Shown in pieces: positions 10,152 to 35,187 of a DNA stretch of 56,768 nucleotides (within the stretch, counting starts at the first letter, position 1; the number at the start of each line of letters is the position of its first letter). The notes beneath the pieces are model-generated. The model was not told the origin of the DNA, made no database searches, and worked only from the letters and a program-made list of their open reading frames with translations. The stretch is from positions 1 through 56,768 of IMG/VR virus record IMGVR_UViG_3300025030_000126. One strand, given 5' to 3'. The DNA comes from a virus (Duplodnaviria > Caudoviricetes). Made by a program: the position numbers and the translations under genes.

Positions 10152-13100
10152 ATGAACAAGGTATATTTCTGGCTGGCACTGTTACTGATACCCACGGCGC
10201 TGATTGCTGCCGACATCTCGCACACTCCGCTCGTGCCGGGGGCGCTGCTGTCTACCGACCGAGTGCCGATGGGGCGACCTTCGAGCGGGCTGGCCGACGG
10301 GAAGGGCGCGGCCTACACTGCCAGTATGAACCAGATCAGGCAGTACGTCCAAGGGCAACTGTCATCCGCTCAAGGCGGGGTAGCCGCTACTGTCGATGTT
10401 GGAACTACTACCACCGGGGCCGCAGGCACCAGTGCGAGCGTCACAAATTCAGGCACCGACAAGGCCGCTATCCTCAACTTCACCGTGCCACGCGGAAACA
10501 CTGGTGCTGCGGGGACTACGGGGGCTGCTGCGACCATCGCGGTTGGCACAGTGACCACGGGCGCAGCCGGTTCCGAGGTAACAGTCACCAACGTCGGCAC
10601 ACCGACCGCCGCTGTATTCGATGTGCGTATCCCCAAAGGGGACAAGGGGGACACCGGGAATACCGGCGCGACAGGGGCACAAGGCGAAGCGGGGGTTCAA
10701 GGTATTCAGGGGATTCCCGGCGATCAGGGGCTGGAAGGACCTGCGGGCGCAGGTTCTGAAGTTCCGGGGCCGCCAGGGGCTCCCGGCGATCCGGGCCTGT
10801 CGGCGTATCAGGTGGCCGTTGCAAACGGGTTTGTTGGGGATGAAGCGGCATGGCTTGCCTCGCTCCAAGGTGAGACAGGACCTCCGGGTAGCGGCGGCTC
10901 TGGTGCGTTTGCCGACATCACGGGCGCACCGGGGGATAACTCTGCGCTGGCTGCCGCGCTCGGAGCGAAGGTTGACACCTCGTCTTTGGCAGCCGTGGCG
11001 ACAACCGGCGCGTATTCCGATCTCACAGGCAAGCCGACCCTCGGCAACTCCGCCGCTCTCGATGTCGGCACCACCGCCGGCACGGTGGCCGCGGGTGATG
11101 ATGCCAGGATAGTTGCGGGAGGGACGGCGTTGCAGTCGGATGGGGATGGGAGCGGCTTGACGGGTATCACCCCTGGGCAGGTCGGGGCAGCTACCGCAGC
11201 GCAGGGCGCTTTGGCGGATAGCGCGTTGCAGACCATCACCGACTCTACCAGCACGACAAGTAGCGCGACGGCGGCGAGCGCGACGGCGGTGAAGTCTTTA
11301 CAGGACTCTAAGGCATCGCTCACCGCCCCGTCCTTTACTACCAGCATTCAGACCCCAGCTATAGGGATCAACCACGCTCCGGTCACAACTGGGCCTTTGC
11401 TCTATCTCTACTCCCCACAGAAAACCCAAGGTTTCTACCAGTATCACTATCAGAATAGCGACCCCGGTATAGCAGACGGCGGCACATTCTCCCCATTCCA
11501 TGTTGAAGTGGCCACCACGGCCACGCAGGAAACACCCAATACGCTACTGAGCGGGGGGCTTACCTCCACGCTCAATTTCGGCCAAGGGGGCGCGGCATCT
11601 GTCGGGACCGGCCACGCCGCCAGCCTGTCGACGGTGATTTACGGCAACGGCGACGCCGCCAGCGAGCACGCCGGGATATTCAGTGCGCTGCGCTACGACA
11701 TTGGGACGGGCTTTGCTCAGACGGCGGGGCCTTCGGGACGCGGCTGGCTCACGGATTTCAACCTGCACGGGCCTGTCAACGTCCAGCCGAATCTCCTGAC
11801 GGGCATCAATATGTTTGCCAACAACTACTACAATGGCTCCCCGGTGTCCGGGCCGTCCGGCGCGATCTGGATCAGTACTGGAAAAGGGCTGGGCGGAGGC
11901 ACGGGCGGCGGTCCGCACACATCCGCTAACACCTACCCGCTAGATGTGGGACTCGGCATCGTTGGCACTTCCTATGCCGGGAGTACCGCAAACGGATTTA
12001 ACAAGGGCATCCAGATCGGGGGCACGGGCTCAGGGTGGGAGGTTCCGTCATCCAAAATAGGCACAGGTATATCTTTGGAGGGGACGCAGGGTGTTGGGGC
12101 CGATTTCTCCGTGGCGACTTTTAGCAACAACTCCACCGCCATCAAACTAGGTCCGACTCAGAAAATATCTGACGGTACCAACGCGTACACACTGGCGGAA
12201 CTTGCCGCAGGGGGCGGTGGAGGGGAGGCGAACACCACATCCAACGTAGGTACCGGCGAGGGCACTCTGGCGAAAGCTAAATCCGGCGTTGACCTCCCGT
12301 TTAAAACCATCAAAGCAGGTAGCAATATCACTATCACCAACAACGCTGATGATGTGACCGTTGAGGCAACGGGCGGTGGGGCGGGTACTGTCATAAGCGT
12401 GTCTTCAGCAAACGCCGATATTGCTGTATCAATGGCATCGCCAACGCCGGTTCTTACTCTTAATAGTGGTACCAGTGCTAACCAGATAGTCAAACGTGGC
12501 GCTAACGGAGCCGTTACGTTTGCGAACAGCGCGAACGATGGGACATCTACAATATCTCCATCCCGAACTATGACAGGGGGAACCGGCGCGGGAACCTCAT
12601 ACAGATCGCTAAACTCGACATTCGGGTTAACAACTACGGATTCTGCCGATAGTGGTTACCTCAGCGCGGGTGGCTTCACAACTACGTACAACGGTTCAGG
12701 TACGTCTGCTTTCACCGGCGAGCTGCGCTCGTTAGTTGTATCGGGCTATAACCAAGGTTCGGCGACTGCGTCAAATGTAACAGGTGTGCTATCAGCGGGT
12801 GGTGCTACAAGCACTGGTGGTATCGCTACGTACACCGGATTTAAATCAGCGCCTTATTCGCCAGGGGCGGGGGTCATAACTACAGCGATAGGCTTTCTGA
12901 GTGACTCCACTACCTATTCCAACGCTACAAATAAGTGGCATTTCTACGGGAACGGAGATGCCCGATCCTACCTTAACGGCAACCTCCAGATCGGCAGCGC
13001 CACGGCCACCACAGGCGCAGAAAAGCTCCAGGTGACGGGTAGCGCATCCATCTCGGGCAACCTCCTTGCCAAGACCTTTACCCCAACGCTCCCATCTGCG

Positions 13101-13409
13101 ACCACCTACGGAGCAACAACGACCATTGACCTTAGTTTGGGCGACTCACCCTCAGTCACCCTCACAGGAGACCCGGCGCTGGCGTTCAGCAATCCTGTAG
13201 CGGGGCAATGGCATACACTCAACCTGATTCAAGACGGGACAGGGGGCAGAACTGCCACATGGCCCTCGTCCGGCCTAGTCTGCACATGGCGGAATACATC
13301 AGGTAATGTGGCACCTACTTTACTGACAGGGGCGAACAAGGTCGACTCGTTCGTAATCCACACGCTATCGACAACCAGCGCCGAATGCTGGACTGCGAAT
13401 AACCAGTAA
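10152..13409 (+). CDS. collagen-repeat fibre-like protein with N-terminal signal peptide
   Basis: MNKVYFWLALLLIPTALIA|ADI; Gly-X-Y run; GLSAYQVAVANGFVG.EA.WLASL, LA.VATTG.YSDL.GKP and C-terminal QDGTGGRT.TWP motifs typical of phage fibres. Confidence 0.85.
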   Translation: MNKVYFWLALLLIPTALIAADISHTPLVPGALLSTDRVPMGRPSSGLADGKGAAYTASMNQIRQYVQGQLSSAQGGVAATVDVGTTTTGAAGTSASVTNSGTDKAAILNFTVPRGNTGAAGTTGAAATIAVGTVTTGAAGSEVTVTNVGTPTAAVFDVRIPKGDKGDTGNTGATGAQGEAGVQGIQGIPGDQGLEGPAGAGSEVPGPPGAPGDPGLSAYQVAVANGFVGDEAAWLASLQGETGPPGSGGSGAFADITGAPGDNSALAAALGAKVDTSSLAAVATTGAYSDLTGKPTLGNSAALDVGTTAGTVAAGDDARIVAGGTALQSDGDGSGLTGITPGQVGAATAAQGALADSALQTITDSTSTTSSATAASATAVKSLQDSKASLTAPSFTTSIQTPAIGINHAPVTTGPLLYLYSPQKTQGFYQYHYQNSDPGIADGGTFSPFHVEVATTATQETPNTLLSGGLTSTLNFGQGGAASVGTGHAASLSTVIYGNGDAASEHAGIFSALRYDIGTGFAQTAGPSGRGWLTDFNLHGPVNVQPNLLTGINMFANNYYNGSPVSGPSGAIWISTGKGLGGGTGGGPHTSANTYPLDVGLGIVGTSYAGSTANGFNKGIQIGGTGSGWEVPSSKIGTGISLEGTQGVGADFSVATFSNNSTAIKLGPTQKISDGTNAYTLAELAAGGGGGEANTTSNVGTGEGTLAKAKSGVDLPFKTIKAGSNITITNNADDVTVEATGGGAGTVISVSSANADIAVSMASPTPVLTLNSGTSANQIVKRGANGAVTFANSANDGTSTISPSRTMTGGTGAGTSYRSLNSTFGLTTTDSADSGYLSAGGFTTTYNGSGTSAFTGELRSLVVSGYNQGSATASNVTGVLSAGGATSTGGIATYTGFKSAPYSPGAGVITTAIGFLSDSTTYSNATNKWHFYGNGDARSYLNGNLQIGSATATTGAEKLQVTGSASISGNLLAKTFTPTLPSATTYGATTTIDLSLGDSPSVTLTGDPALAFSNPVAGQWHTLNLIQDGTGGRTATWPSSGLVCTWRNTSGNVAPTLLTGANKVDSFVIHTLSTTSAECWTANNQ

Positions 13410-13416
13410 TCATTAC

Positions 13417-13476
13417 CTGCGGCTAGGCTGATCCCCGAAAAGGCGCACCCTACGCCCTGCCGCAGATTCTATAGGG
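13417..13476 (+). ncRNA. candidate structured cis-RNA in intergenic gap
   Basis: CTGCGGC/GCCGCAG outer stem, GGCG/CGCC inner hairpin, loop CCCTA complementary to downstream TAGGG. Confidence 0.5.
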
Positions 13477-13495
13477 CAATCCTGTGGGAGGATTT

Positions 13496-13906
13496 ATGAA
13501 AAACGCAATGTTGATTTTTTGTATTACGGCAATGTTGATGATGTTCGCGGTTGTGGCACGGGGAGCGGATTACGGAATACTGCGCGAAGGTGGGTGGAAG
13601 TACGGGAACGTCTACTCCCTTGAACTAGCTCCGGGATTCTCGGCAAGGACAGTGAAAGAAGTGATGGGCGTGTACTCTGACTCAAGAGAAGCCCTCGCAG
13701 AGTACATTAGGGTTTCCAACAGACAAAACGGTGTGCCAGATGTGGTGCTGGCTGTCGTTCTCAAGTCCGCAGAAGGAGAAGAAATAAGATTAGACGTTGT
13801 GGCAGTAGATGATTTGCCGTTGCATAGTGTTCCCGTTGCTTGCGGCAAAATCAAAGCTAAAAAGTGCTGGTTCATCAAGTACAAAGATGAGGAGAAAGGC
13901 GAATGA
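13496..13906 (+). CDS. secreted hypothetical protein (signal peptide)
   Basis: GGAGG RBS; MKNAMLIFCITAMLMMFAVVARG|AD. Confidence 0.75.
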   Translation: MKNAMLIFCITAMLMMFAVVARGADYGILREGGWKYGNVYSLELAPGFSARTVKEVMGVYSDSREALAEYIRVSNRQNGVPDVVLAVVLKSAEGEEIRLDVVAVDDLPLHSVPVACGKIKAKKCWFIKYKDEEKGE

Positions 13907-14178
13907 AAACCCTCATCGTAGCACTGGTATTGATCCTGGCTGCATCAGCTGCGAGGGCGGAAGACGCAAAAGATACTCGAACTTTGCGCTCCGCAGTATC
14001 GGTGCTCCACCGGCAGGAACAAGACACCTGGAAAAGATTGAAGGCGTCTGAATATACTCTAGAGAAAACGGAGTGTGCAACAAAGGCACAGCGTAAGGAG
14101 CTGGAGGTATTGCGCCGCCAATGGGTTGACACACATTCTGCGCTCAGCAGTCTCAAAAGACTGCTCGGGCAGGACTAA
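13903..14178 (+). CDS. secreted coiled-coil protein (signal peptide)
   Basis: MKTLIVALVLILAASAARA|ED; ATGA overlap. Confidence 0.75.
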   Translation: MKTLIVALVLILAASAARAEDAKDTRTLRSAVSVLHRQEQDTWKRLKASEYTLEKTECATKAQRKELEVLRRQWVDTHSALSSLKRLLGQD

Positions 14179-14223: not shown

Positions 14224-14667
14224 ATGAAAAAAATGATTTTTCTGATACTCCTCCTGCTCCCCTCACTCTGCTACGCCGGGCCGGGAGCGCGACGGTTGTT
14301 GATGGTGGCCAAGCCTCTACCTCCAAACGAACTATTCACCTCTGGTGCTAATGGTTGGTCCGGCGCATGGGGGTGGGAATCCAGTTCCCATATGGGCGGC
14401 GGAATGTATGCAACATCAGGCGAGTCCGCCATGACTAAAGTGATTTCTGCACCAGCACCTTGCAATATGACGGTTTACTCCAGGGTTTCCACGGGGTCGC
14501 TTTCGTCGTTCACGGCCTGCAACGGGGCTGCATGCGTCAATCTCAACACATCGTCTACGTGGACTAAATCAGGAGATTTGGCGCTTAGCACAGGTGACAA
14601 TACGATAACTATCACTGCGTCAGGTGGAACCTACGGCGCATTAATTGACACCATTGAATTTAGATAG
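14224..14667 (+). CDS. secreted beta-sandwich (CBM/galactose-binding-like) protein
   Basis: AAGGA RBS; MKKMIFLILLLLPSLCYA|G; ends L.TG.NTITI......IDTIEF. Confidence 0.7.
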   Translation: MKKMIFLILLLLPSLCYAGPGARRLLMVAKPLPPNELFTSGANGWSGAWGWESSSHMGGGMYATSGESAMTKVISAPAPCNMTVYSRVSTGSLSSFTACNGAACVNLNTSSTWTKSGDLALSTGDNTITITASGGTYGALIDTIEFR

Positions 14668-15800: not shown

Positions 15801-15803
15801 ACT

Positions 15804-17080: not shown

Positions 17081-18691
17081 ATGAGTACCGAAGCGTACCA
17101 AGCTCTGGTGACGGACGTCACAGAGAAAGCGCAGCACATGAAGGATGCGCTTATCAAACCGGTGATTGACGAAAGCACCGGCAAATTCATCCTGGAGAAG
17201 GCCGCAAGGACGGACGCTCTCAATGCAGCGGTTCCGCACACCATTTTCGAAGGGTGCGGCCCGGATGCAGGCATGGTGCTGGCGACCGCCTCCAACGCTG
17301 TCCGTGCATTTTGCAGGCAGCGCAACCGCATGCCGGGGGATGACCTGCTGGCATCGGCCTACACCGCCATCCAGAACGTCATGGGAGCGTCCGCGCACAC
17401 GTCTCGTTCCGGGCTGATCCTCGAAAGCGCGGCGACCATGAACACGCAGGACTCCAACCAGTCGCTCATGCGTAACCGCATGATTGCCCTGGTGCTGCCG
17501 ACCATGCTCCAGTCGATCACCTCCAACATGATCGGCTACATCCCCGGCCAGTTCAACCAGTCCGAAATATTCCGCGTCTGGAAGACGGCAGGGTCCACCT
17601 TTGGCGACCTCACCAAGGGCGACCGCATTCAGTGGGACTACACCGGCCAGTACAGCTCCATGGACCAGCGCCACCTGACCATCGCGGGCGACGGTGCCAA
17701 GAGGGGCCTCGCCGACGAGTTCGACTTCGTTTCCACCGACAAGTTCGGCGGTGCCTACCCGATGAAGAAAAAGCGGGTTCGCATCCTGCACGACGGGAAC
17801 CCCGTGGGCCAGGACGACGGCAACGGCTACCTGACCGGCAACTTCAAGGTCGGCGAGACCGCCGTAGTCGTGTCCGGCACCGTGGATTATGTCAACGGCG
17901 TCATCCATCCGGTCTTCAGCGTCGCACCGGCCAACCTGATCCCCGTGCATGTCGCCTTCGACGTGGACATCGAGAAGGCCCCGCAGCTCATCCCGTCGAT
18001 CAACCACGAGATGGACAGCTACACCGTCTACCCGCACGAGTCGGCGATCACCGCGAGCACGACCCTCCAGGCACTCTGGGGCATGCGCCGGGAGTTCAAT
18101 GTGAACGTGGACAACATGGCGACCCTTGCCATGAAGAACCTGCTCGCCGCCGACAAGGACCGCAAGCATCTGCACGACCTGTACTTCTACATGAAGGGGT
18201 CCGAAAGCTGGACCTACACCATCCCGGAAACCGGCGTCAACATGCAGGACTACTACGAGACCCTGAGAACCACGCTTCTCACCATCTCCTCGACCCTGCT
18301 GAACGCGAACGGCGTCTCCGGCCTTGTCGGCATCGTGGCCGACCTGAAGACCTGCGCCATCATGAAGTCGATGCGCTCCCCGCACTTCGACCCCGCCCCC
18401 GGCTACGCGCAGATCCCGCAGCCGCACTATGTCGGACGCCTGTTCGGCATGTGGGACCTCTACGAAGACCCGCAGCGGGCCGACTACTCCAGCCTCTGCT
18501 TCGCCAAGGGGCGCAACATCTGCGAGGCGGCCTACATCGGCGGCGACGCGATCCCCGCCATTGCCTTCAAGCATGGCGTCCTGGGCGACCTGAAGTACAA
18601 CAACACCCTCTGGGAGTTGTCCTACCGCGACCTCCAGCAGTTCAACGGGCGCGACTACATCATGGAGCTGAAGCTCATCCCCGCCGAATAA
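17081..18691 (+). CDS. gp23: major capsid protein, P1 gp23-like
   Basis: 536 aa, very high GC3, AAGGAG RBS, N-terminal propeptide ending ILE|SAA, FDVDIEKAP.LIP.INHEM motif; followed by terminator then sheath. Confidence 0.92.
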   Translation: MSTEAYQALVTDVTEKAQHMKDALIKPVIDESTGKFILEKAARTDALNAAVPHTIFEGCGPDAGMVLATASNAVRAFCRQRNRMPGDDLLASAYTAIQNVMGASAHTSRSGLILESAATMNTQDSNQSLMRNRMIALVLPTMLQSITSNMIGYIPGQFNQSEIFRVWKTAGSTFGDLTKGDRIQWDYTGQYSSMDQRHLTIAGDGAKRGLADEFDFVSTDKFGGAYPMKKKRVRILHDGNPVGQDDGNGYLTGNFKVGETAVVVSGTVDYVNGVIHPVFSVAPANLIPVHVAFDVDIEKAPQLIPSINHEMDSYTVYPHESAITASTTLQALWGMRREFNVNVDNMATLAMKNLLAADKDRKHLHDLYFYMKGSESWTYTIPETGVNMQDYYETLRTTLLTISSTLLNANGVSGLVGIVADLKTCAIMKSMRSPHFDPAPGYAQIPQPHYVGRLFGMWDLYEDPQRADYSSLCFAKGRNICEAAYIGGDAIPAIAFKHGVLGDLKYNNTLWELSYRDLQQFNGRDYIMELKLIPAE

Positions 18692-18765: not shown

Positions 18766-19251
18766 ATGAAGGTCACTTTCATCAACAACAGTTGCAGCAG
18801 GTTACGTCGGCTTTACTCGCGGTTCGAACTGGACCTCCCCGGCAACAAGGAAACCACACTGCTTGTCCCGGACGTGCTTGTGGACAACGTGGAACGCTAT
18901 CTCCGCACACACCATCCTGCCGTAGTGATGGTGAAAAATGCGGCTGATGCGGGGCCAGCCCCGGCAGCCTCAAGCGTCGCGGTGACCATTACGGACAAGA
19001 CGGTTCTGGATATCAACGTGGACGATCAGGAGACCGAAGCGCCGGGCATCACCATCGAGCAGCATCTGCGATCCATTGGGCTGCTCTCGGACACTCCCGT
19101 AGAAGAGGCCCCCATCGTTGCCGAAGTTGCCGAAGTACCGGCAGAGCAGGCGGCACCGGAAGCATCCAAACCGGCCAAAAAGGGCGGCGGCAACCTGATC
19201 CCGGCGAAGAAAGCTGATAAGCCTGCCAAAACTTCCGGAGGCAAGAAATGA
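18766..19251 (+). CDS. hypothetical protein with Ala/Pro/Glu/Lys-rich tail
   Basis: AAGGAG RBS; ATGA overlap with sheath. Confidence 0.75.
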   Translation: MKVTFINNSCSRLRRLYSRFELDLPGNKETTLLVPDVLVDNVERYLRTHHPAVVMVKNAADAGPAPAASSVAVTITDKTVLDINVDDQETEAPGITIEQHLRSIGLLSDTPVEEAPIVAEVAEVPAEQAAPEASKPAKKGGGNLIPAKKADKPAKTSGGKK

Positions 19252-20957
19252 AGCAAGTCATAACCAATGCCGCAGACATCACCATTCTGCGTACCGATGC
19301 CAGCGCGACCACGAAGACAGGGGGCGGGCCTATCTCCATCGGAGCATCGGCTGTAGTGGCGAGCAAGGGGAAGCCCTTCACGGTCATTCGCACGCTGGCA
19401 TCTACCCTGGAAAAACTTTTCGGCAAGGCACTCCCCAAGAAAGCGGCAGGGGCCGAGGGGCTCCGGCACGTCAACGACGCGCTGAAAGAACTGCTTTACT
19501 GCAACTTGGTCCGGGTCGTCAACGAGGATTACCGGTTCCCGTCGCTGGCTTTCGCTACGGATGACGGGGCGGCCACCACTGCGGCCAATACCCACAACAC
19601 TGTTTTGTCCATCGGGGCGGGCAATTTTCTCCAGGTCTGGCCGGTGGACGGCGACCCCTCCGTCAACCGTTCCTTCGAGGTTGCCAATGTGGTGACGGAC
19701 AAGGGCGCATACGATACCGCAGTGGTCTACGCGGTCAACGATGTAGTGGACGTGGCGGGCGGGCGTCTGATCTGCATCGCCCCCCATATCGCCACCGATG
19801 CCGACCCGACCCTGGCGATCCCGACCGTCCGGTGGGAGGTCTACAACGGCCAGTACGACGAGCGGTTCACCATCAACTTCTACGACGAGGACAAAGACGG
19901 CACCGAGTATCTGCTTGAAACCTACCTTGTCGGCGTGGACTCCTTCGACAAGGATGACATGGGACTCCCGGCCTACATCGAAACTGTTCTTGAGCAGCAG
20001 TCCACGCGCTTCAGGGCGAACTTTGATGAAGACGAGACGTGGGCCACGGTTCTCACCGGCCTGAAAGGGATCACCAAGACCACGTTCACCGGGGGCACCA
20101 ACGGCGGCGAGCCTGTTACCGCCGACTGGAATGCCGCCTGGGACCTGTTCAGGAACGAGACCTTTGCCGCGAACCACATGTTCGCTGCGGGTCTCTACGA
20201 TGCCGATGCGCTCGCCAACATGATCGACGTTGCCGACAAAAGGCGGGCCGCCTGCTACTTCGACGTTTCCCCGGCACTCACCTCCGCACAGGCCATCGAG
20301 TGGCTGAAAGGCACAGGGCTTGCCAGCCGCAATGCCCGCGTCACCCACTCGCCGTTCTCGGCCAACGACCCGACCTATGGCGGGGGGATGGTATGGGGCG
20401 TTTCCGGCGACAAGGTAGCGGCCAAGTGCCGAGGGGAAGCAATCTTCTCCGGGTCAACTCCCGGTGTCCACTTCGCAGCGGCAGGCGCGAACCGCGCCAT
20501 GCTCACCCGCACGGGTGTGAAGCCCCTGCACGAGGAAGACGCGCCCGACCGGGATGCCCTTTACAGGGCGAGGATCAATCCGGTAGTCGCCGGGGGAACT
20601 GGAGGGGCGGTCATAGACGACGACCTTTCCCTGCACTTCAAAGAGGACTACAGCAGGCTTGCCTGGGTTGTGGACATCGACAACTACATCGCCCACAGGT
20701 TCTACCAGGGAGCCGCAGCACTGAAGTTTGAACCGGACGGCCTTACCTTCTCCGGTCTGACCTCCATGACCAAGGAGATTCTGGACGAGATGGTCACTTC
20801 CGGGGCGCTCGTGAAACCCCGCGACCCCGAAGACGGCGACAAGGAGTACATCCTCACCGTCGAGCAGATCGAGATAGACCTTTGGCTGGTAACGTGGTAC
20901 ATCTGCCCCACCGGCAGTGCCCGCAGGATCGTCGGACAGCCGCGCTACATCAAATAG
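19248..20957 (+). CDS. gp22: contractile tail sheath protein, P1 gp22-like
   Basis: D.DDMG.PAYIET.LE, RINPV...IDD.L, FEPDG.T, CPTGSARRI.G.P motifs. Confidence 0.92.
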   Translation: MKQVITNAADITILRTDASATTKTGGGPISIGASAVVASKGKPFTVIRTLASTLEKLFGKALPKKAAGAEGLRHVNDALKELLYCNLVRVVNEDYRFPSLAFATDDGAATTAANTHNTVLSIGAGNFLQVWPVDGDPSVNRSFEVANVVTDKGAYDTAVVYAVNDVVDVAGGRLICIAPHIATDADPTLAIPTVRWEVYNGQYDERFTINFYDEDKDGTEYLLETYLVGVDSFDKDDMGLPAYIETVLEQQSTRFRANFDEDETWATVLTGLKGITKTTFTGGTNGGEPVTADWNAAWDLFRNETFAANHMFAAGLYDADALANMIDVADKRRAACYFDVSPALTSAQAIEWLKGTGLASRNARVTHSPFSANDPTYGGGMVWGVSGDKVAAKCRGEAIFSGSTPGVHFAAAGANRAMLTRTGVKPLHEEDAPDRDALYRARINPVVAGGTGGAVIDDDLSLHFKEDYSRLAWVVDIDNYIAHRFYQGAAALKFEPDGLTFSGLTSMTKEILDEMVTSGALVKPRDPEDGDKEYILTVEQIEIDLWLVTWYICPTGSARRIVGQPRYIK

Positions 20958-21257: not shown

Positions 21258-21482
21258 ATGAAAAAGTCGATACTTGTTGCAATCGCTCTGTTTGTCCTGT
21301 GGGTTGTCGGCGGGGCTGCCTTTGCCGCCTCTGGCGACCGGACCCCGGTGAACAAACTGAAGCACGGTGCCCCGGCTGCCGGTTCTACCTGTGTCCAGGG
21401 GGAACAGAGGGTGACTGCGAAGTTCGTATTCACCTGCATGACCACGAACGGGTGGAAAAACTACAGCTCCGCTTCCTTCTAA
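21258..21482 (+). CDS. small secreted protein (signal peptide)
   Basis: AAGGAG RBS; MKKSILVAIALFVLWVVGGAAFA|AS; GS.C..G.....F.FTC..TN.WK mini-domain of fibre type. Confidence 0.75.
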   Translation: MKKSILVAIALFVLWVVGGAAFAASGDRTPVNKLKHGAPAAGSTCVQGEQRVTAKFVFTCMTTNGWKNYSSASF

Positions 21483-21523: not shown

Positions 21524-22198
21524 ATGCGCGAAGAATTCAATTATTATGCACACCAGCCGCACGAAGAGGAATCCTTCCTGGGGGTAGGGTCGATGGCGCT
21601 GAGACCGGGAATGACCATCCTTGAGGCCGCCGCGCCCGACAGTTCCCTGATGGGGGATTTTTCGGGGAGCCAGACCCGTAGCGCGGCAATGGCTCTCGCC
21701 CTGGCGTTTGTCGAGGGGGGCGACTTCAGTTATGCAGCCCTCGAAGCGGGCGCTTTCCTGATGGCCGATGCCGACGAGGATCAGGACATCTCCGATGACG
21801 AGCAGGACTTCTTGAACGAACTGCTCCAGGGTGTGGCCGACGCTTTCACCTCCCTGGGGGCCGATGCCGGAAACGTCGCATCCTTCATGGATGACGAAGA
21901 CGACGCGGCAGGGGCGACCCTTGGCGCGTTCCTCTCCGAGAAGATGAGCGGGACGACCATGGACGACGACGAGATCATCGCCAACTACGCGGTCGGCGGC
22001 GACATGGTTCTGGAGTCCATCGTCAAGGTCGTCAGGTCCGGCAAGGTTGTACTGAAGCGCAAGCGCATCGGCAGGCCGAAGAAGATCACCGCGATCCAGC
22101 GGGCGGGCTTGAAGAAAGCCCGCATGAGGGCCTTCACCGGGGCAGCGAAAGTCCACCGCGCCAAGTCGATGAAGATCAGAAAGCAGAGAGGGATGTAG
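21524..22198 (+). CDS. gp21: P1 gp21-like protein (acidic body, basic C-terminus; prohead-core-like)
   Basis: ALGAD...V....DDEDD.A and VVR.GKV...RKR....Q..LKKAR..A......R.KSM.IRK.RG. Confidence 0.85.
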   Translation: MREEFNYYAHQPHEEESFLGVGSMALRPGMTILEAAAPDSSLMGDFSGSQTRSAAMALALAFVEGGDFSYAALEAGAFLMADADEDQDISDDEQDFLNELLQGVADAFTSLGADAGNVASFMDDEDDAAGATLGAFLSEKMSGTTMDDDEIIANYAVGGDMVLESIVKVVRSGKVVLKRKRIGRPKKITAIQRAGLKKARMRAFTGAAKVHRAKSMKIRKQRGM

Positions 22199-24665: not shown

Positions 24666-25535
24666 ATGGCTTGGTTAAACGCAACATTGGCCGATTCTGT
24701 GGCTGGCATGACAGCGAAGGCGAATGCCGCCATTGCCGCAGCCGAGGCTGCACTTGCAGCACTCAACAGCCAGACGACGGCGATGCAGTCCAAACTGACC
24801 GCCATGCTCGACGCGGCGACCGATAACAAGTCGATGCTCGACAAGATGGCAGAGTCCGGCTTCTACATGATAACCCTCGCGCCCCAAGTGGGTTCATGGA
24901 CCGCAAGGCTGACCGGGGCGGCGAACGAGCCGATCAACTCCGGGTTTTGTGCCGGGACCGCTAACCTGATCCTTTCCGCCGACCCTGCGGTCGTGGCAAA
25001 TGCCTATGCCAAGGTCAAGGCCGCGCTGCTCAAGCCGATTGACGATGCGAACAAGTTCATAGATCAGACCGATTTCTCCGACTTCATCCCGGAAGCCCCG
25101 GTCTATGACGATTTCCCCGCAGCCGAGTTGCCTGACTGGGATGTCCTGTACCCTTCAGGCCAATGGCAATCGGCCAAGCTGGGGGATGTTTTCGGCGGGG
25201 CAATGTCTGGTCTGGGTACTGCGTCGGAGGGGTTAAATAAGGGCGTCAAGGAGCTTCTAGCCACGGCCAACCACGTCGGGAAGATCACCTCCGCTTTGGA
25301 CAAAGGACTGACGGCAGCACAGGACTTCATGGCGGGCTTGCAAGCTACGGGCGTTTACTCTATCATGCTGCCACCTGGGGCCGGGGGCTACCTCGACCGC
25401 CTCCAGGCCGAAGCAGGCGCACCGCCCGTCGACTCCGAAATGTATAGCGCGGGGTTCGTCTGCATCGCCGTTGCTGCCGGGGCCGAAGACCTCGCCGCCA
25501 AGTACGCCACCATCAACCAGCTCATGAAAGGCTAG
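24666..25535 (+). CDS. Ala-rich hypothetical protein with internal duplication
   Basis: Two similar units (SGFYMITLAP..G.W..RL..A..P / TGVYSIMLPP..GY..RL..A.P). Confidence 0.75.
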   Translation: MAWLNATLADSVAGMTAKANAAIAAAEAALAALNSQTTAMQSKLTAMLDAATDNKSMLDKMAESGFYMITLAPQVGSWTARLTGAANEPINSGFCAGTANLILSADPAVVANAYAKVKAALLKPIDDANKFIDQTDFSDFIPEAPVYDDFPAAELPDWDVLYPSGQWQSAKLGDVFGGAMSGLGTASEGLNKGVKELLATANHVGKITSALDKGLTAAQDFMAGLQATGVYSIMLPPGAGGYLDRLQAEAGAPPVDSEMYSAGFVCIAVAAGAEDLAAKYATINQLMKG

Positions 25536-26531: not shown

Positions 26532-28400
26532 ATGTTCGAAGAAACCGTCAAAACCCAGAAGGCCGAAGAGAAGGACCCGATAGAGGCTCTTTCCGAAATC
26601 CTCGAAAAGTTCGAGAGCCGCCCCCTTCTCAAGAAAATCGAGCGCAACACCGCCGTGCTGCCGACCCTGCTACGAGCCCTGACTGTCGCCAAAGGGACCA
26701 AGGCCGCGCACATGTACGTGCGGGACTTTGCCAAGATCGAAAAACCCCTGCGGCAATCCACAGAACGGCTGAAGGCGACCGCTGGCCCCGTCGCCGTGCG
26801 CCCCTCGGCGGTCGCGGCCCGGATAGCGCAAGCGGCGACAGCCAGGGCCGTCACCCGGAACGCTTCTCCGGTGCTCCCCGCGCCCGTAGTGCCTACGCCA
26901 GTTGTCACCCCTATCCCCGCCACGCCTCGCTCCGCACGAGCGGCAATTTCCCGCGCCACAACAGCCATCAATCAGCCGGAACGCGCCAAAAACGGACGGT
27001 TCAAGTCGGCGGGGGAACTGGAGAGGGAAAAGCAGCAAAGCCAAGAACCTGTCAAGGGAATGAAGGGCTGGTTTAAGGCCGCCATTGGTGCCGTCATCGG
27101 CAAGGGGAAGGATAAGGGCGGGGATATAGGGGACGCGGCAGGCAAGGCCGTTGGCGGGCCAATTTGGGAGGCTGCCAAAGAGATGCAGGGCGCTGTCGGC
27201 GAGCTGAAGGAAAAGCTTCAGGACGACAAGACCCTGTTGGGGAAAGCTTTCAAGTTCCTGGGCCGGAAGACCCGCCTTGCTACCGGACGTAACGCCGCGC
27301 CGACCGAAGGGACCGAGCAGCGTCGGCACCGCGAACTGATCCAGGCCATAGAGGGCGGTGGGCATGGCGGCGGCGGGGGCAGTGCCGGGGCTGGTATTGC
27401 CGAAGCTATCGGCGGTGGGATCACCGGGGCAACAGGCGTCAAGTTTTTGAGCAAGATTCCTGGGGCGAGCATCGCGGCCAAGGTCCTGGCAAAAGCAGGT
27501 CCGGTGCTGGGGGTGCTCGCCAGCGGGACGGTGCTTGCGGGAGCAGCCGCCGTGCTGGCTGGAGGGTCTGCGCTGAAATCCCTCTTCATGGGTGGAAGCA
27601 ACCCGATCAACGACCTCTATAAGAAGACGGGATTGCCAAAAGTCAGCGAAAGCCCCGAGCAGCAGGAGATGAACCGCAGGGGTGTAGCCTTCACCAAGAA
27701 GATGAATGAGGAGAGAGTTAAACAGGGCAAACAGCCCCTAGAGTACAACCCCGTCACTGGGGATGTGATACCGCAAGCTGCTAGCGAGCAAATAGAGAAG
27801 TCCAGCAAGAAGAACGGGCTGAACTCGAACCTCATCAAGGGCGTAATCAGCACGGAAAGCCAAGGAAACCCTAATGCTAAGTCGAAGGCCGGAGCTGTGG
27901 GGCTTATGCAACTCATGCCTCGAACAGCAAGAGACCTTGGCGTTGCCGACCGCCGAGACCCAAAGGCGAACATAAAGGGGGGGACCGCACACTTAGGCCG
28001 CCTGATGAAAAAGTATGGCGGCAACGAAACCCATGCGCTTCAGGCGTACAACTGGGGCGAAGGAAACATGGACGCCTACCTAAAAACGGGACGGGGGGCG
28101 AAGGGACAAGCGATGCCGCTGGAAACAATCAACTACCCTGTCAAGGTCCAGCGCAACAAGTCAGCATATGAGCGGGGGGCTATCGTCCCGGCAAAGACGC
28201 AAATCAAGGAGGTATCCCAGCCGACATCTCTGAAGGATGTGGTTCCCGCCCCCTTGACGGCAACCCTTATGGGGACCGAAAAGCTCATATCGGCACTGAA
28301 CAAGCAAGGTGCGCCCAAGAAGGAAACCGCAGGGCTGGCCCCGATCAAAACCCACTTCGATGACACGATCCTCAACCTGATGACCCACGACAGGATTTGA
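26532..28400 (+). CDS. sit: tape measure protein with lytic transglycosylase domain, P1 Sit-like
   Basis: ES.GNPNAKS.AGA.GLMQLMP...AYNWGEG SLT motif; R...GRF and G.A.GGP.W motifs; synteny pmgB-sit-pmgA. Confidence 0.9.
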   Translation: MFEETVKTQKAEEKDPIEALSEILEKFESRPLLKKIERNTAVLPTLLRALTVAKGTKAAHMYVRDFAKIEKPLRQSTERLKATAGPVAVRPSAVAARIAQAATARAVTRNASPVLPAPVVPTPVVTPIPATPRSARAAISRATTAINQPERAKNGRFKSAGELEREKQQSQEPVKGMKGWFKAAIGAVIGKGKDKGGDIGDAAGKAVGGPIWEAAKEMQGAVGELKEKLQDDKTLLGKAFKFLGRKTRLATGRNAAPTEGTEQRRHRELIQAIEGGGHGGGGGSAGAGIAEAIGGGITGATGVKFLSKIPGASIAAKVLAKAGPVLGVLASGTVLAGAAAVLAGGSALKSLFMGGSNPINDLYKKTGLPKVSESPEQQEMNRRGVAFTKKMNEERVKQGKQPLEYNPVTGDVIPQAASEQIEKSSKKNGLNSNLIKGVISTESQGNPNAKSKAGAVGLMQLMPRTARDLGVADRRDPKANIKGGTAHLGRLMKKYGGNETHALQAYNWGEGNMDAYLKTGRGAKGQAMPLETINYPVKVQRNKSAYERGAIVPAKTQIKEVSQPTSLKDVVPAPLTATLMGTEKLISALNKQGAPKKETAGLAPIKTHFDDTILNLMTHDRI

Positions 28401-30167: not shown

Positions 30168-31199
30168 ATGCTTGACTGGATGGTGAAGAGACTCACCCCC
30201 GCCAAAAGGGAAGTCGCCAGATGGAGAGACCTGGGAGCCGCATTGCAGACCTTTTGGGAAACCCTCTTCGATCCCGAACTCGACAAAATTCGCCGCATGA
30301 ACTCCATATACACGGCAGATCTTGACGGGCAACGCCGGATCGTCGCCGACCTGGGGGATTACTTCGAACCGGATCAGGCCGACATATCCATCCCCATATC
30401 CGTTGCCATGCGGAAGCTGGAACTGGCGATGAAGGACACTGATTATCCTATCCGTTCGGCAATCCAGCGTATCGGACTGGAAGGGTCGATAGGGGGGTCA
30501 TCGCAGTCGCTCTACCTGCTTGATGGGGGAGGCAGCGGCAAGGTGGGGCGTCTCCAAGCCAGATGGAACAGGGGGGCATCTTGGCAGATCGAGGTGCAGA
30601 CTGTCCAAGGGTATGAGCCGAGCGACCCCATTCTTATCCTCGACAAGGGTGAGAGCGGCAGAGTGGGGAGCATCCAGGCCCAAATCATAGGAGAGAACGA
30701 CGACCACGAGGATATGTGGTACGCCACGGTAGCCACCGCAGACGGGGTGCCTTCACCGGAAGTCTGGATGAAGGATGTGGACGGAGCCCGCAAATCGGTC
30801 CTGCTTGAAGCCGAGATCATGGTGGTAGACGGAGACGGCGTGGAGACTTGGCAACTTCTGGCAGTCAGAAGCAGGTACATCAACGGCGAAGGGGTGCAGT
30901 GGCTCCCGCTATGGGCTTTGGAGTCGGACGGACCTTATGGCACCCAGTTTTACAATGAGGCGGTGGGCATCCCCGAAGGGGCCTATTTAACCTCTCGCGG
31001 GGTGATACTCGCCGACCTGCGTGCCATAGATCAGGCGTCGCTGTCTCGCATAGACGATCTGGTCAGGAATATCAAGCCACTGCACATCGTCTATGACGGG
31101 ATGATTTTCATAGGCACTGATTTCTCGCAGTCTTTCAACCTCATTGCCGAATCGGATGAGCACATACTCGCCGAGGAAGGCGACAACGTTATCACGTAA
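30168..31199 (+). CDS. gp16: baseplate wedge protein, P1 gp16-like, with internal insertion
   Basis: W...RLTPAK, P.L..I....SIYT, W.PLWA...YG, YLTSRG, PLHIVYDG. Confidence 0.85.
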   Translation: MLDWMVKRLTPAKREVARWRDLGAALQTFWETLFDPELDKIRRMNSIYTADLDGQRRIVADLGDYFEPDQADISIPISVAMRKLELAMKDTDYPIRSAIQRIGLEGSIGGSSQSLYLLDGGGSGKVGRLQARWNRGASWQIEVQTVQGYEPSDPILILDKGESGRVGSIQAQIIGENDDHEDMWYATVATADGVPSPEVWMKDVDGARKSVLLEAEIMVVDGDGVETWQLLAVRSRYINGEGVQWLPLWALESDGPYGTQFYNEAVGIPEGAYLTSRGVILADLRAIDQASLSRIDDLVRNIKPLHIVYDGMIFIGTDFSQSFNLIAESDEHILAEEGDNVIT

Positions 31200-31214
31200 C
31201 AGGGAGATCTTTTT

Positions 31215-31979
31215 ATGAAATTGTTCAGGTACGTCGCGGCCTTAATGCTGTTCCACACCGCAGCCTTTGCAGCAGACATCAAAGTCACTCAGATGCCTGC
31301 TGCGATCAGTGTCGCGCCTACCGATCTGCTGATGCTGGTGCAGGGGAGCGCGTCCAAGAAGGCGACTGTAGGTCAGGTCACACTAGGGGGTGTAGGGTAT
31401 GCGGCCAATGCGGGGACGGTAGCCAACACCATCCCGGTTCGAGACGGGGTCGGCAAGCTCCCTGGCAGCATAACCGGCGATGCCGACACGGTGGACGGAT
31501 TCCATGCCGCAGCCTTCGCCACGGCAGCGCAAGGGACTAACGCCGACAAGGCCGCTCCTACCGGGACCGTTATCACCTTTGCCGGGGCTACTTGCCCATC
31601 CGGGTGGCTGGCGGCAAACGGCGCGGCGGTAAGTCGGGCATCTCAATCCGTCCTTTTCGCGGTGATAGGGGTCACCTACGGCACTGGGGACGGCACTACT
31701 ACCTACAACCTACCTGACCTTAGAGGCGAATTCGTAAGGGGCCTGGATAGCGGCAGGGGGGTAGACAGTGACCGCGTACTCGGTAGCTGGCAGAACCATA
31801 CGTTCCAGCAGCATACTCACGGCGGGGTGCCTCTGAAAGAGAACGATGCCAGTGACGGTTCTGCCGCAAGCACCGTTTCCTTCACTGGCACCACTGCTAC
31901 AACTGGGGCCGTAACCGGCAGCTACGGCACGGAGACTCGCCCGCGAAACGTGGCACTCCTGTACTGCATCAAACCCTAA
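31215..31979 (+). CDS. tail fibre protein with tail-collar domain and N-terminal signal peptide
   Basis: PTG.VI.FAG...PSGWL.ANG..VSR.....LFAVIG.TYG.GDG.TT.NLPDLRGEFVRG.D; ETRPRNVALLYCIK; starts MKLFRYVAALMLFHTAAFA|ADI. Confidence 0.9.
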   Translation: MKLFRYVAALMLFHTAAFAADIKVTQMPAAISVAPTDLLMLVQGSASKKATVGQVTLGGVGYAANAGTVANTIPVRDGVGKLPGSITGDADTVDGFHAAAFATAAQGTNADKAAPTGTVITFAGATCPSGWLAANGAAVSRASQSVLFAVIGVTYGTGDGTTTYNLPDLRGEFVRGLDSGRGVDSDRVLGSWQNHTFQQHTHGGVPLKENDASDGSAASTVSFTGTTATTGAVTGSYGTETRPRNVALLYCIKP

Positions 31980-32001
31980 TCGCTGAGAATTGGAGGTTGT
32001 A

Positions 32002-35000
32002 ATGAAATATTTGCTGATGAGCGGAAAACAGGCGGGCATTGCAGCGGCACTGATTTTCGTCGTATGGGCGGCGATGTTCGAGCCGACCCCGGACCTCGCC
32101 AGGGCCGCAACGGTAATCGGCCCCAGTTTCATGAACATAACGTCGCCGGGGCAGCAGACGCTGAGATCTACGCAGATCGGCAATACCGTGGAGATCGTCG
32201 GGACCGGCGATATAACCATTACCACGGATCGAACGGCCAAGAAATTAACCATATCGTCGTCCGGTGCCGCGAACCTTACAACCCTCACGAATCAGGCGAC
32301 AGCCGCAGCAACTTCGGCGCAGTCTTCAGCCACATCGGCCATGAACGACGCGGTGACGGCATTCACCAGGGCAGATGCGGCGAGTGCTTCCGCCATCTCA
32401 GCGGCACAAGCGGCTACCAACGCATCGGCGGCGAAGTCGGCGGCGGTGCAGGCGCAGGCCAACGCAGTGCTGGCGCAGGCACAGGCGAATACGGCGGCGG
32501 CGACGGCATCGGCTATGGTGGAGACCGCAAGCAGCATAGTGATGGATGTCGAGGGGGCGGCGGCGTCAGCAGCGGCGGCGGCCATTTCGGAAGCCAATGC
32601 AGTCTTCGCCGCAAACGAAGCCGATGGAGACGCGGCGGCGGCGGAAACGTCTGCCACGGATGCCGCTACTTCGAGCACTTCCGCTTCAGGGTTCGCAGAC
32701 GCGGCCAACACCTCCGCATCGCAAGCCAGCACATCGGCGGGCCAGGCGGGAACCAGTGCCAGTGCAGCCGCTTCCAGCGCCACCACGGCGACGACCAAGG
32801 CGGCAGACGCCAGCACTTCGGCCACGGCAGCGGCGACATCGGCAAGTTCCGCCGACACCTACAAAACCGCAGCAGAAACAGCCAGCACGGCGGCGACGAG
32901 CGCCAAGGTGGCGGCAGAAGCGGCCAACACGGCGGCGGGTACGTCTGCTTCAGCAGCGGCAACGAGTGCGAGCAACGCAAGTTCTTCTGCCGGTGCCGCA
33001 TCTACGAGCGCCAGTGCTGCGAACACCTCGAAGCTTGCTGCCGAAACGGCGCAGACTGCGGCAACATCGGCGCAGACGGCAGCGGTCACGGCGAAGAACT
33101 CAGCAGAGTCGGCCAGCGCAGCAGCGGCCACCAGTGCGACCAACGCGGCGAACAGCGCCACGGAAGCGGGAGGGAGCGCCAGTGCGGCGGCGACTTCAGC
33201 AAGCGCGGCATCAACGCAGGCGACCAATGCGGGGAACTCAGCCACGGCGGCTAATACATCCAAACTGTCAGCCGAATCAGCTTATGACGCAGCCAGGGTG
33301 CAGACTTCTGGGGTAACCTTCAGTCTACCCACCTACGAGTTATTCTGGGGGTATGGTGGCGACCCTGCAACTACGGTAGCGATATACTCTTCTGGAGGTG
33401 CAACTATTAGTACGGTGGCTAACACCTCAGGTTCAGGCGGCCTAGCCCTGTCTATCTCCGGTGCTCCACCGTCTTGGATTGGTACACGAAAAGCTTATCC
33501 AGTAACCGAGGGACGAAAGTACAGGCTGACCGTTAAGGCAAGAAAAACTGTAGATGACGGTGGACTACTCTATATAATGTCAACACCACTAGATAGTAGC
33601 TACATGGCAATAAGGTACGACTATCTGGGTCTGCCCGCACTTGTAGTCGCTAATGGCTGGCAGACCTACAGCTATGAAATAATACCAATAGCGGGCGACA
33701 AATTTATTAGACCCGCAATTCTTCCCAACTACAACAACCTTACTGGAACAACTGAGATAGGTCAGATGTCTTTTGAAGATATCACGGAGTCAACAGCGGC
33801 AGCAACACAGGCGAGCGCAGCGGTCACCAGCGCGAATAACGCTTCCACTAGTGCGACCAATGCCGGGACGTCTGCCAGTGCAGCAGCTACCAGTGCAACC
33901 ACGGCGTCTACCCAAGCGGGCGATGCCAGCACTTCAGCCTCCCAAGCATCCACTTCCGCAACAAATGCTTCTGGGTCGGCCAACAGCGCCAGCACCAGCG
34001 CCACGGCAGCGGCCAACAGTGCGACCAATGCCGGGGACAGTGCTGGTGCGGCGGCCACGAGCGCAAGCACGGCTTCAACTCAGGCGACCAACGCAGGGAC
34101 GTCTGCTTCGGCGGCGGCGGTAAGCGCCGTTACCGCAGCATCAGAGGCCGCAGGTGCCAGCACCTCGGCGAGTGCAGCATCGACCTCGGCGAGTAGCGCA
34201 TCGACCTCGGCGGGGGCGGCTGGCACGTCGGCAACAGCGGCGGCGGCAAGTGCGACGGCGGCTAGCACCTCGGCGGGTAGTGCCAGCACCTATGCCAGCC
34301 AAGCTTCTACGTCGGCAGGCAATGCGGCGACCAGTGAGACCGCAGCGGGAACCAGTGCAAGCAATGCCAGCGCCTCTGCCAGCACTGCGTCATCGCAGGC
34401 AAGCAGCGCATCTACTTCAGCGGGTAATGCCTCTGCCAGCGCCACGGCGGCAAGTAACAGCGCCACTGCCGCAAGTACGTCAGAAGGGAATGCCCTTTCC
34501 TACTCGAATAGCGCAGCGTCGTCATCCAGCACCGCTTCGAGTGCAGCTACCACGGCAGGAACTCACGCAAGCAACGCCTCTGGGTACGCGACAAGCGCGG
34601 CGACGAGCGCCAGCGAGGCCGACACGGCGGCGAACCAGTATTCCGCTCAGTACACTCTCAAGGTCGATGCCAACGGGAAGGTTGCGGGGATCGGGCTTTT
34701 CTCGGATGGTACTCTAGGGAGCCATATTGATTTCACCGCCGATGCCATTACCATAGCTTCGGGCAAAACAAGTCCAACCGATACCACTACAGGGTACTGG
34801 CTGGGAAATGATTCAGGGACACCTAAACTCAGTATTGGCAGCAGTACCAACTATATGAAGTGGGACGGCACAAGCCTGAATTACACGGGAAAGATTAATG
34901 GCGACTATATCGTAAGGGGGAAGGTTTTCGCTAATAGCACCATAGAGGGTTCTGGATTCTATATTACCAAAGGCAGCACTGGCAGTTGGATAGTCTGGTT

Positions 35001-35187
35001 CACCGCCCCGTTCACTGCGGAACCTACTGTTACGATTACACCCCTAAGATTCGGAAAGGGAGCTGCCGTATCAATGTCGAGCAGTGGTGTTGGTGATTTT
35101 GGTGTTTACACAACGCTAGAGGACGCTGGGGGTGTTGCTCAGTATTCGGACGAAAGTTTCTCTTTTATAGCGATTGGGCCGCGATAA
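32002..35187 (+). CDS. long tail fibre (Ala/Ser/Thr-rich stalk, internal CBM-like domain, DUF1983-like and C-terminal receptor-binding domains) with signal-peptide-like N-terminus
   Basis: GGAGG RBS; Stf-like A/S/T repeats; YTLKVDANGKVAGIGL; F..PF...PTV...FSFIAIG terminus. Confidence 0.85.
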   Translation: MKYLLMSGKQAGIAAALIFVVWAAMFEPTPDLARAATVIGPSFMNITSPGQQTLRSTQIGNTVEIVGTGDITITTDRTAKKLTISSSGAANLTTLTNQATAAATSAQSSATSAMNDAVTAFTRADAASASAISAAQAATNASAAKSAAVQAQANAVLAQAQANTAAATASAMVETASSIVMDVEGAAASAAAAAISEANAVFAANEADGDAAAAETSATDAATSSTSASGFADAANTSASQASTSAGQAGTSASAAASSATTATTKAADASTSATAAATSASSADTYKTAAETASTAATSAKVAAEAANTAAGTSASAAATSASNASSSAGAASTSASAANTSKLAAETAQTAATSAQTAAVTAKNSAESASAAAATSATNAANSATEAGGSASAAATSASAASTQATNAGNSATAANTSKLSAESAYDAARVQTSGVTFSLPTYELFWGYGGDPATTVAIYSSGGATISTVANTSGSGGLALSISGAPPSWIGTRKAYPVTEGRKYRLTVKARKTVDDGGLLYIMSTPLDSSYMAIRYDYLGLPALVVANGWQTYSYEIIPIAGDKFIRPAILPNYNNLTGTTEIGQMSFEDITESTAAATQASAAVTSANNASTSATNAGTSASAAATSATTASTQAGDASTSASQASTSATNASGSANSASTSATAAANSATNAGDSAGAAATSASTASTQATNAGTSASAAAVSAVTAASEAAGASTSASAASTSASSASTSAGAAGTSATAAAASATAASTSAGSASTYASQASTSAGNAATSETAAGTSASNASASASTASSQASSASTSAGNASASATAASNSATAASTSEGNALSYSNSAASSSSTASSAATTAGTHASNASGYATSAATSASEADTAANQYSAQYTLKVDANGKVAGIGLFSDGTLGSHIDFTADAITIASGKTSPTDTTTGYWLGNDSGTPKLSIGSSTNYMKWDGTSLNYTGKINGDYIVRGKVFANSTIEGSGFYITKGSTGSWIVWFTAPFTAEPTVTITPLRFGKGAAVSMSSSGVGDFGVYTTLEDAGGVAQYSDESFSFIAIGPR

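Follow-up and report, generated by a model that had tools for sequence, protein, structure and literature searches.

All three putative tail-fibre proteins encoded in the IMG/VR virus record IMGVR_UViG_3300025030_000126 begin with a signal-like hydrophobic leader, and so do four small proteins encoded in their neighbourhood. The window analysed here comprises 56,768 bases, the entire record for this genome, and by its gene content it is classified as a distant P1-like myophage. The signal-like N-terminal anatomy itself is confirmed. As to its function we favour, with a probability of roughly 45%, the reading that these leaders are Sec signal peptides on virion fibres, which would be cut by signal peptidase I, fold in the periplasm and dock on the particles at or after lysis.

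Tailed phages are generally regarded as assembling their virions in the cytoplasm alone. The host secretion machinery is known to serve phage proteins of lysis and exclusion, and also filamentous phages and those that contain membranes. If receptor-binding fibres carried conserved and recurrent secretion signals, either the last assembly step would occur in another compartment or the fibre genes would have a second function in the envelope. In both cases there would be consequences for the annotation of fibre genes, where leaders are easily trimmed as errors, for the way fibres are expressed when host ranges are engineered (leader kept or removed, inside or outside the periplasm) and for the interpretation of virion proteomes. 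No report of Sec signals on tailed-phage fibres was found in the full-text literature searched, outside of which most subscription journals lie, so that a prior report is possible. In the available parts of PMC12210884, PMC3556154, PMC12923769, PMC3322345 and bioRxiv 10.64898/2026.03.17.712343 the term “signal peptide” concerns only cargo tags of extracellular contractile injection systems, methods or references.

Signal-like N-termini of three fibres

The fibre genes are the following (an arrow marks a predicted cut; the score is defined below):
10152..13409, plus strand: collagen-repeat fibre of 1085 amino acids (aa); leader residues 1-19 (10152-10208); predicted cut LIA↓ADIS; score 5.47
31215..31979, plus strand: short fibre of 254 aa; leader residues 1-19 (31215-31271); predicted cut AFA↓ADIK
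32002..35187, plus strand: fibre of 1061 aa; leader residues 1-35 (32002-32106) if the cut is ARA↓AT, or 1-23 if it is VWA↓A

Their N-termini are MNKVYFWLALLLIPTALIA↓ADIS, MKLFRYVAALMLFHTAAFA↓ADIK and MKYLLMSGKQAGIAAALIFVVWAAMFEPTPDLARA↓ATVIG, respectively. Fibre 10152 is recognized by collagen repeats together with matches to tail-fibre PHROGs, and 32002 by tail-fibre PHROG matches down to 6e-20. In 31215 residues 117-174 match the Pfam family Collar (PF07484; 1e-21, 76.9 bits against a cut-off of 24), and its tip resembles the collar domain of T4 gp12 (1OCY, 5e-7). The long fibre 32002 consists of degenerate A/S/T repeats broken by two globular-looking stretches (~430-600 and ~880-1061); Ala, Ser and Thr account for 57% of its residues and Cys is absent.

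Leaders were scored with a heuristic of our own that requires net positive charge in the n-region, a hydrophobic core free of charges and, at positions -3/-1, small residues, with the cut-off set at 4.4. All three fibres (5.2-5.95) and all four small neighbours (5.7-7.8) are positive, and none of the 20 other genes of the module at 6039-35187 is (fibres against others, Fisher p = 5.6e-4). The original prediction had described leaders on the genes at 10152, 31215 and 32002 and their absence from the core structural proteins; both observations hold, with the open reading frames (ORFs) and N-termini being as claimed. Among six-frame ORFs of at least 60 aa the heuristic accepts 12 of 270, namely the seven named genes, a lipoprotein gene at 35240 and four shadow ORFs. 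SimB and SimC alone pass among 26 control proteins of P1 (5.8-6.0). The P1 proteins S, R, U, 16 and all other structural proteins obtain no score, in agreement with the earlier statement that P1 S and R have no signal peptide, and none of the 32 coding sequences in the tail region of a Vibrio P1-like plasmid reaches 4.4.

Two relatives of the window permit a comparison of the leaders. G001 is an IMG/VR contig of 96,554 bases (84% complete according to the CheckV estimate) that is collinear with the window at 70-94% nucleotide identity, and L008 is a metagenome contig of 12.9 kb. The n-regions of the window leaders are short and positively charged (MNK, MKLFR, MKYLLMSGK). The fibre leaders score 5.2-6.6, and in the window, G001 and L008 they have hydrophobic cores of 14-17 residues, which is the length of signal peptides and not of membrane spans. 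Small residues occupy positions -3/-1 (L-I-A; A-F-A, or V-F-A in G001; A-R-A or A-Q-A), and the first mature residues of the fibres carry no net positive charge. Two other export signals were rejected: a lipoprotein signal (signal peptidase II), because the three fibres have no Cys at their junctions or close to them, and a Tat signal, because RR is absent from all leaders.

The leader ATGs of 31215 and 32002 stand close after the preceding gene and have a Shine-Dalgarno (SD) motif 5-9 nt upstream in the window, G001 and L008; for 10152 the spacing is less clear. The ORF of 32002 opens at a TTG at 31990, and its ATG at 32002 has GGAGG 5 nt upstream. No SD motif was found before in-frame downstream ATG, GTG or TTG codons of the fibre genes. 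As SD sites precede the leader starts and not the downstream ones, the leaders are apparently translated; downstream starts were rejected both for their lack of an SD motif and because a start past the leader would cut conserved sequence. True starts beyond the leaders, which the original prediction had named among the findings that would refute it, are not seen. About 2% of shadow ORFs (4 of ~200 non-gene ORFs) do pass the heuristic and high-GC DNA gives frames rich in Ala, Leu and Val, so that miscalled starts or chance hydrophobicity, with the true proteins beginning downstream, had to be considered. This explanation is close to excluded: at 2% each, three of three fibres by chance would amount to ~1e-5, SD motifs occur only at the leader ATGs, the frames remain open and hydrophobic through divergent leaders in three to four relatives, and a conserved motif follows right after the leader, which a downstream start would truncate.

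Leaders in relatives and in other phage lineages

Signal peptides keep charge, core length and the A-x-A site while their sequence drifts (von Heijne's -3/-1 rule). An alignment of homologs had been proposed as a check of leader conservation, and it reveals leaders that drift or are exchanged for others, in front of mature proteins whose alignment starts at the predicted cut. There are four orthologs of 31215, i.e. the window protein, P0002, P0003 (L008) and P0004 (G001), all with a leader of 19 residues. K2, R5, M11, L12, F18 and A19 are invariant, position -3 is A or V, and the remaining core positions vary only among hydrophobic or small residues. Compared with the window, 10/19 leader residues are identical in G001 and 13/19 in L008; for the next 56 residues the identity is 80% and 88%. 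No alignment is possible between the leaders of the 32002 orthologs (MKYLLMSGKQAGIAAALIFVVWAAMFEPTPDLARA in the window, MISRIKLLLAVIFASAVIISSSAQA in G001, MRNIDMRKVAIFSLILTVWAVLSGVPPTCLKPVSVDMARA in L008), and the three proteins have the same A-x-A↓AT(V/I)IGPS junction; in blastn the similarity between window and G001 resumes at 32103, which is codon 34/35 at the A↓A junction. Homolog searches with residues 1-130 or 34-92 of 32002 returned nothing and missed the known ortholog too. For 10152 the leader is identical in the G001 ortholog, and a homolog on the T4-like contig L118 (214,553 bases) has another leader, MKKEGWVIVSFFLLITIGAFA, followed by the same ADISHTPLV.

This pattern bears on the possibility that the hydrophobic N-termini are not export signals and represent instead a retained buried trimeric helix, an inner-membrane tether on the cytoplasmic face at the assembly site, or a segment cut by another protease during tail maturation. 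A structural helix should keep its sequence, whereas here leaders are replaced wholesale with charge, core length and A-x-A retained. Moreover, 11 independent leaders described below end in a -3/-1 site, with Met1 replaced by -1 Ala in eight of them, and the complex model presented in the next section docks well without the leader. On the other side, the other tail parts are all cytoplasmic, the 32002 leader has an unusually long c-region, and AlphaFold2 models the leader alone as a helix, although with low confidence; for T4, membrane-associated assembly of the baseplate has been described. Altogether we consider a role other than export to be unlikely.

The sequence that follows the 31215 leader is a module known from a mostly leaderless family, M-AD(L/V/I)K(I/V)S.LPAA...VQGG..KKAT. 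A hidden Markov model (HMM) of this motif matches 31215 with an independent E-value of 4.4e-23 and begins right after the leader. A profile of mature residues 1-56 was searched in 1.84 billion representatives and yielded 132 matches at E <=1e-3, or 130 after subtraction of two own orthologs. The first motif position lies at residue <=3 in 107 of these 130, typically as M-AD(L/V/I)K(I/V)S.LPAA, which bears out the earlier claim that the motif normally stands right after Met1. It lies at residues 4-10 in six, at 11-30 in 15 and deeper in two representatives. Four of the 15 have a non-hydrophobic extension (MS.RSEV.RIFNEL) and 11 carry unrelated signal-like leaders with heuristic scores of 4.43-6.68; the remaining positives of the heuristic in the motif set score <=3.65 and lie inside the motif. 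The junction is ...A↓AD... in eight of the 11, the -1 Ala replacing Met1. Ten of the leader-bearing representatives were looked up (P0052 was left out), and all are singletons from metagenome assemblies. A leader thus takes the place of Met1 in 31215, in its three orthologs and in the 11 representatives just described. Met is known to be removed when Ala follows it, and a cut at the 31215 leader would leave an N-terminus like that of the leaderless majority after Met removal. The profile search revealed no solved structure with the 31215 motif, and no match at E <=0.01 was obtained when the 56 mature residues of the motif were compared with cultured phages by tblastn.

The combination of leader and fibre is, judged from gene context, not peculiar to the window phage. 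Ninety-three IMG/VR loci were fetched with two leader-bearing proteins as queries, which makes them a biased sample, and in these the motif HMM detected 15 frames, two of them with hydrophobic leaders. On L113, a contig of 67% GC, the gene at 9728-11731 encodes the leader MKNMNMPIKRVVACAMSLLLVGQTLA↓QTKIS and lies behind genes for a major head protein, an adaptor, a head-closure protein and a 150-aa leaderless fibre. On L118 a signal-bearing collagen-like fibre (2938-4353) is encoded directly after T4-type head-closure and sheath-stabiliser genes, together with a second signal-bearing protein of >455 aa (4949-6313; MDRITALFFVWLLLPTTTFA↓ADV) that has no family match. Two unrelated viral contigs show this architecture in their tail modules. 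It is conceivable, if still speculative, that some tailed phages possess a periplasmic branch of virion assembly, in which receptor-binding fibres and perhaps tip or accessory proteins would be exported by Sec, cut by the host signal peptidase, folded outside the cytoplasm and snapped through a freed N-terminal module onto fibreless particles at lysis. Such a branch would have arisen repeatedly, in contigs of P1-like, T4-like and podovirus-like type and in ~8% of a single family of fibre N-termini.

Docking model and readings of the leaders

The gene upstream of 31215 encodes the candidate docking partner:
30168..31199, plus strand: gp16-like baseplate protein; phrog_2015; blastp to P1 gp16 5e-10; no signal-like N-terminus

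A structure prediction of its C-terminus with mature 31215 had been suggested as a check, and an interface is indeed modelled. The gp16-like protein was combined with three copies of mature 31215 residues 1-91, with 3-row alignments on each side. The interface score ipSAE was 0.72, 0.72 and 0.73 in three runs and 0.00 in the best of three controls; this mark is reached by 58 of 80 solved complexes and by 2 of 110 mismatched pairs. At least 64% of the contacts are common to the runs, and the confidence measure pLDDT of the partner is at least 87. In the model residues 317-343 of the gp16-like protein (31116-31196) contact mature 31215 residues 1-9 and 21-28 of all three copies. These predictions support binding of the mature N-terminus of 31215 to the C-terminal tail of the gp16-like protein, and they favour a role of 31215 in the virion over one at the cell surface alone. 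Should the model be correct, the docking surface would consist of the residues just past the cut, which fits a need for removal of the leader. An AlphaFold2 monomer of the 31215 precursor had a mean pLDDT of 27.6 and was unusable.

A leaderless fibre that could serve the virion in place of these proteins was found neither beside gp16, as had been noted before, nor in the searched parts of window and G001. In all frames of at least 50 aa in both genomes the motif HMM recognizes only 31215 and its ortholog (next best E 1.1). PHROG searches with 20 of the 114 picked ORFs of the 84% complete G001, larger ones chosen outside the shared structural block, revealed no further fibre. These ORFs include the portal, small terminase, ParB, RecT, an exonuclease and a replication initiator as well as DarA-, DdrA- and DarB-like proteins, a GH108 endolysin and a leader-bearing protein with an FN3 domain.

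According to the reading of the leaders as Sec signals, the precursors of 10152, 31215 and 32002 would be expressed from late tail operons and pass unfolded through SecYEG. Signal peptidase I would cut at LIA↓ADIS, AFA↓ADIK and ARA↓ATVIG, and the fibres would then fold and trimerise in the periplasm, with capsid, sheath, tube and baseplate being built in the cytoplasm as in P1. Cleavage of 31215 would free an N-terminus (AD.K...) equal to that of leaderless family members after Met removal, and with this freed N-terminal module the trimer may clamp the gp16-like baseplate protein by its C-terminal tail. Particles complete in all other parts would receive their fibres only when lysis joins the cytoplasm with the periplasm, or later in the lysate. 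We infer export, folding in the periplasm and the exact site of cleavage, as well as when and where docking takes place. Docking at lysis needs a last assembly step that can be separated from the others, and attachment of the T4 long tail fibres is such a step, since fibreless particles accept separate fibres in in-vitro complementation. In T4 itself the synthesis, chaperoning and attachment of the fibres all take place in the cytoplasm, and these fibres have no signal peptides.

Known systems resemble the window only in part. The P1 module (16, R, S, U) has the same order of genes for capsid, sheath, gp21, PmgG, tube, PmgC, PmgB, Sit, PmgA, BplA, gp16 and fibres; it differs in that P1 R, S and U have no hydrophobic N-terminus, whereas the window fibres all possess leaders and a U-type chaperone gene is lacking. 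P1 Sim and Sec-dependent or signal-arrest-release (SAR) endolysins are phage proteins that use the host Sec system, with SimB and SimC scoring like the fibre leaders, but they are non-structural and act on the envelope. The nearest precedent found is cellular and is formed by the MAT fibres of Bdellovibrio bacteriovorus. All 21 of them are described as a signal peptide followed by a conserved N-domain (PMC10769870). They are trimeric and phage-fibre-like, have an N-terminal anchoring domain and variable tips, and are exported and displayed; they differ in being chromosomal products of the predator cell that are anchored on its surface and are not virion parts (PMC10769870). Their N-domain is reported as beta-rich, ~130 aa long and without structural homologue (PMC10769870). 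The likeness to the window fibres is one of architecture only.

Such examples also suit another explanation, namely that the export signals are true and the exported pool acts in the envelope, where it would mask the phage's own receptor during transit or on debris, exclude superinfecting phages or serve as an adhesin, with virions obtaining a cytoplasm-folded fraction or the uncleaved precursor. It accounts for the signal-like features equally well and sidesteps the kinetic difficulty that docking at lysis poses; exclusion proteins are exported by P1 too (SimB and SimC, 5.8-6.0), a lipoprotein gene is convergent to the long fibre gene of the window, and Bdellovibrio displays exported phage-like fibres, with a signal peptide on 21/21 MAT fibres (PMC10769870). 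We nevertheless regard an action in the envelope as rather improbable. The genes belong to tail operons and occupy the positions of P1 R and S, and in the frames searched there is neither a leaderless second copy nor an internal start bearing an SD motif; three retained hydrophobic leaders of 19 residues would sit at the modelled docking interface; and an outer-membrane route is not encoded in what was read.

Several points weigh against the preferred reading of Sec-exported virion fibres. The score is our own heuristic and not a trained predictor, and it was calibrated only on P1 and one plasmid. In two of the three orthologs of 32002 the stretch from the core to ARA↓AT measures 10-15 residues and includes charges, which is atypically long for a signal-peptidase site, and the heuristic favours VWA↓A in the window protein. 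Two Cys are present in each of 10152 and 31215 and none in 32002, so disulfides are no obvious reason for export. As 119 of the 130 motif-bearing representatives have no signal-like leader, the periplasm appears to be dispensable for the fold. The gp16-like chain is poorly folded in the complex model (pLDDT 48-49), and the three-copy job with 3-row alignments differs from the calibration of the tool. A conserved periplasmic chaperone was not found, with the signal-bearing small neighbours being absent from G001. Docking of periplasmic fibres to cytoplasmic particles within a burst of seconds would be kinetically demanding. Finally, the host is hinted at only by an insertion sequence (IS) element, a weak clue, and the window covers ~57 kb of a ~97-kb genome.

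Neighbouring genes, structural module and possible host

The small signal-bearing neighbours and the lipoprotein gene are:
13496..13906, plus strand: 136 aa, signal-like N-terminus, directly after the fibre gene; score 7.02; GGAGG before the ATG; no family found
13903..14178, plus strand: 91 aa, MKTLIVALVLILAASAARA↓ED, then a charged helix-like remainder; score 6.38; no Pfam or PHROG match
14224..14667, plus strand: 147 aa, signal-like N-terminus; score 5.71
21258..21482, plus strand: 74 aa, Cys-containing, MKKSILVAIALFVLWVVGGAAFA↓ASGD; score 7.79; inserted between the sheath and gp21-like genes
35240..35569, minus strand: predicted lipoprotein of 109 aa, MTNLKLAITILILMFSLTA↓C, lipobox LTA↓C; score 5.43; convergent on the long fibre gene

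The four small neighbours had been proposed to carry leaders of the same type as the fibres, which is correct for all four, but as members of the system they are not conserved: no counterparts were found in G001. They all possess SD sites and none has a Pfam or PHROG family match. In the ESM Atlas 14224 matches CBM6/CBM35 clusters at 0.78, a weak lead to carbohydrate-binding modules that is under the bar of 0.9, and 13496 obtains sub-threshold leads only. By their distribution they appear to be variable, strain-specific accessory genes. The corresponding slot of the Vibrio plasmid holds a leaderless ‘tail assembly chaperone’, and from position one might imagine the small neighbours as periplasmic helpers of the fibres. 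After its first fibre G001 has a 526-aa leaderless protein and, just behind the fibre, a 319-aa protein with an FN3 domain and its own leader (L007 3578-4537, minus strand; MIWRLLVLSLLIVSPAWA↓SPQ); the window has three small signal-bearing genes there.

The lipoprotein of 35240-35569 has no PHROG or Pfam match, and at its place G001 contains a different signal-bearing ORF. By prediction it is an envelope protein, possibly of exclusion type. Its layout recalls T5, where a receptor-blocking lipoprotein is encoded beside the receptor-binding gene. A further protein with a signal- or SAR-like N-terminus (MKRFLVALWVLLGLA...) is the endolysin of G001 (reverse-complement 62716-63405; L004 13150-13839, minus strand), which comprises GH108 and PG_binding_3 domains and maps outside the genome part covered by the window. 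This suggests that the lineage already uses Sec in lysis, a point in favour of the Sec reading of the fibre leaders.

The structural module was identified by PHROG searches, with P1 order taken from the annotated P1 map and similarity from blastp. Besides the fibres and the gp16-like gene it contains:
17081-18691: capsid-like protein
19248-20957: sheath
21524-22198: gp21-like protein
between the gp21-like and Sit-like genes: PmgG, tube proteins, PmgC and PmgB
26532-28400: Sit-like tape measure with transglycosylase domain
after the Sit-like and before the gp16-like gene: PmgA-like and BplA-like proteins

Homologs of gp22, gp21, PmgG/C/B/A, Sit, BplA and gp16 in P1 order define a P1-like (Punavirus-type) tail module. 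The BplA-like protein matches P1 BplA at 2e-66 in blastp, and the sheath is 31% identical to that of P1 and 37% identical to those of Vibrio and Alteromonas P1-like plasmids. The P1 map reads 23-22-21-pmgG-bplB-...-pmgC-tub-pmgB-sit-pmgA-bplA-16-R-S-U, and the window order 23-22-21-pmgG-...-bplA-16-[31215]-[32002] corresponds to the 16-R-S synteny, with 31215 at the position of R and 32002 at that of S. No U-type chaperone gene follows 32002 in the window, and blastp of the three fibres against P1 S, R and U gave nothing significant (best E 0.002 over 38 residues). A profile search of genome contigs with the gp16-like alignment found no relative, and no tRNA genes were found. PHROG searches with 10 peripheral window ORFs, of which some may be wrong frames, gave no matches. 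The conserved structural-module ORFs at 18766-19251 and 24666-25535 (both plus strand), present in G001 too, also have no PHROG match.

A TnpB-type IS element (7229-8275, plus strand, with 8360-8581) lies between two tail genes and is absent from G001; the final ~60 residues of the upstream phrog_1722 tail protein are unlike those of G001. The element matches the Pfam families Cas12f1-like TNB (3e-20) and OrfB_IS605. Its best genome match is 74% identical and belongs to an Oryzomonas (Geobacteraceae) metagenome-assembled genome, which is weak evidence pointing to a diderm host of the Oryzomonas/Geobacteraceae kind. At 45570-53108 (plus strand) the window contains an ORF of 2512 aa, whose collinear ORF in G001 has 2122 aa and stands beside a 1195-aa protein that matches DarB-like and internal-virion-protein PHROGs.

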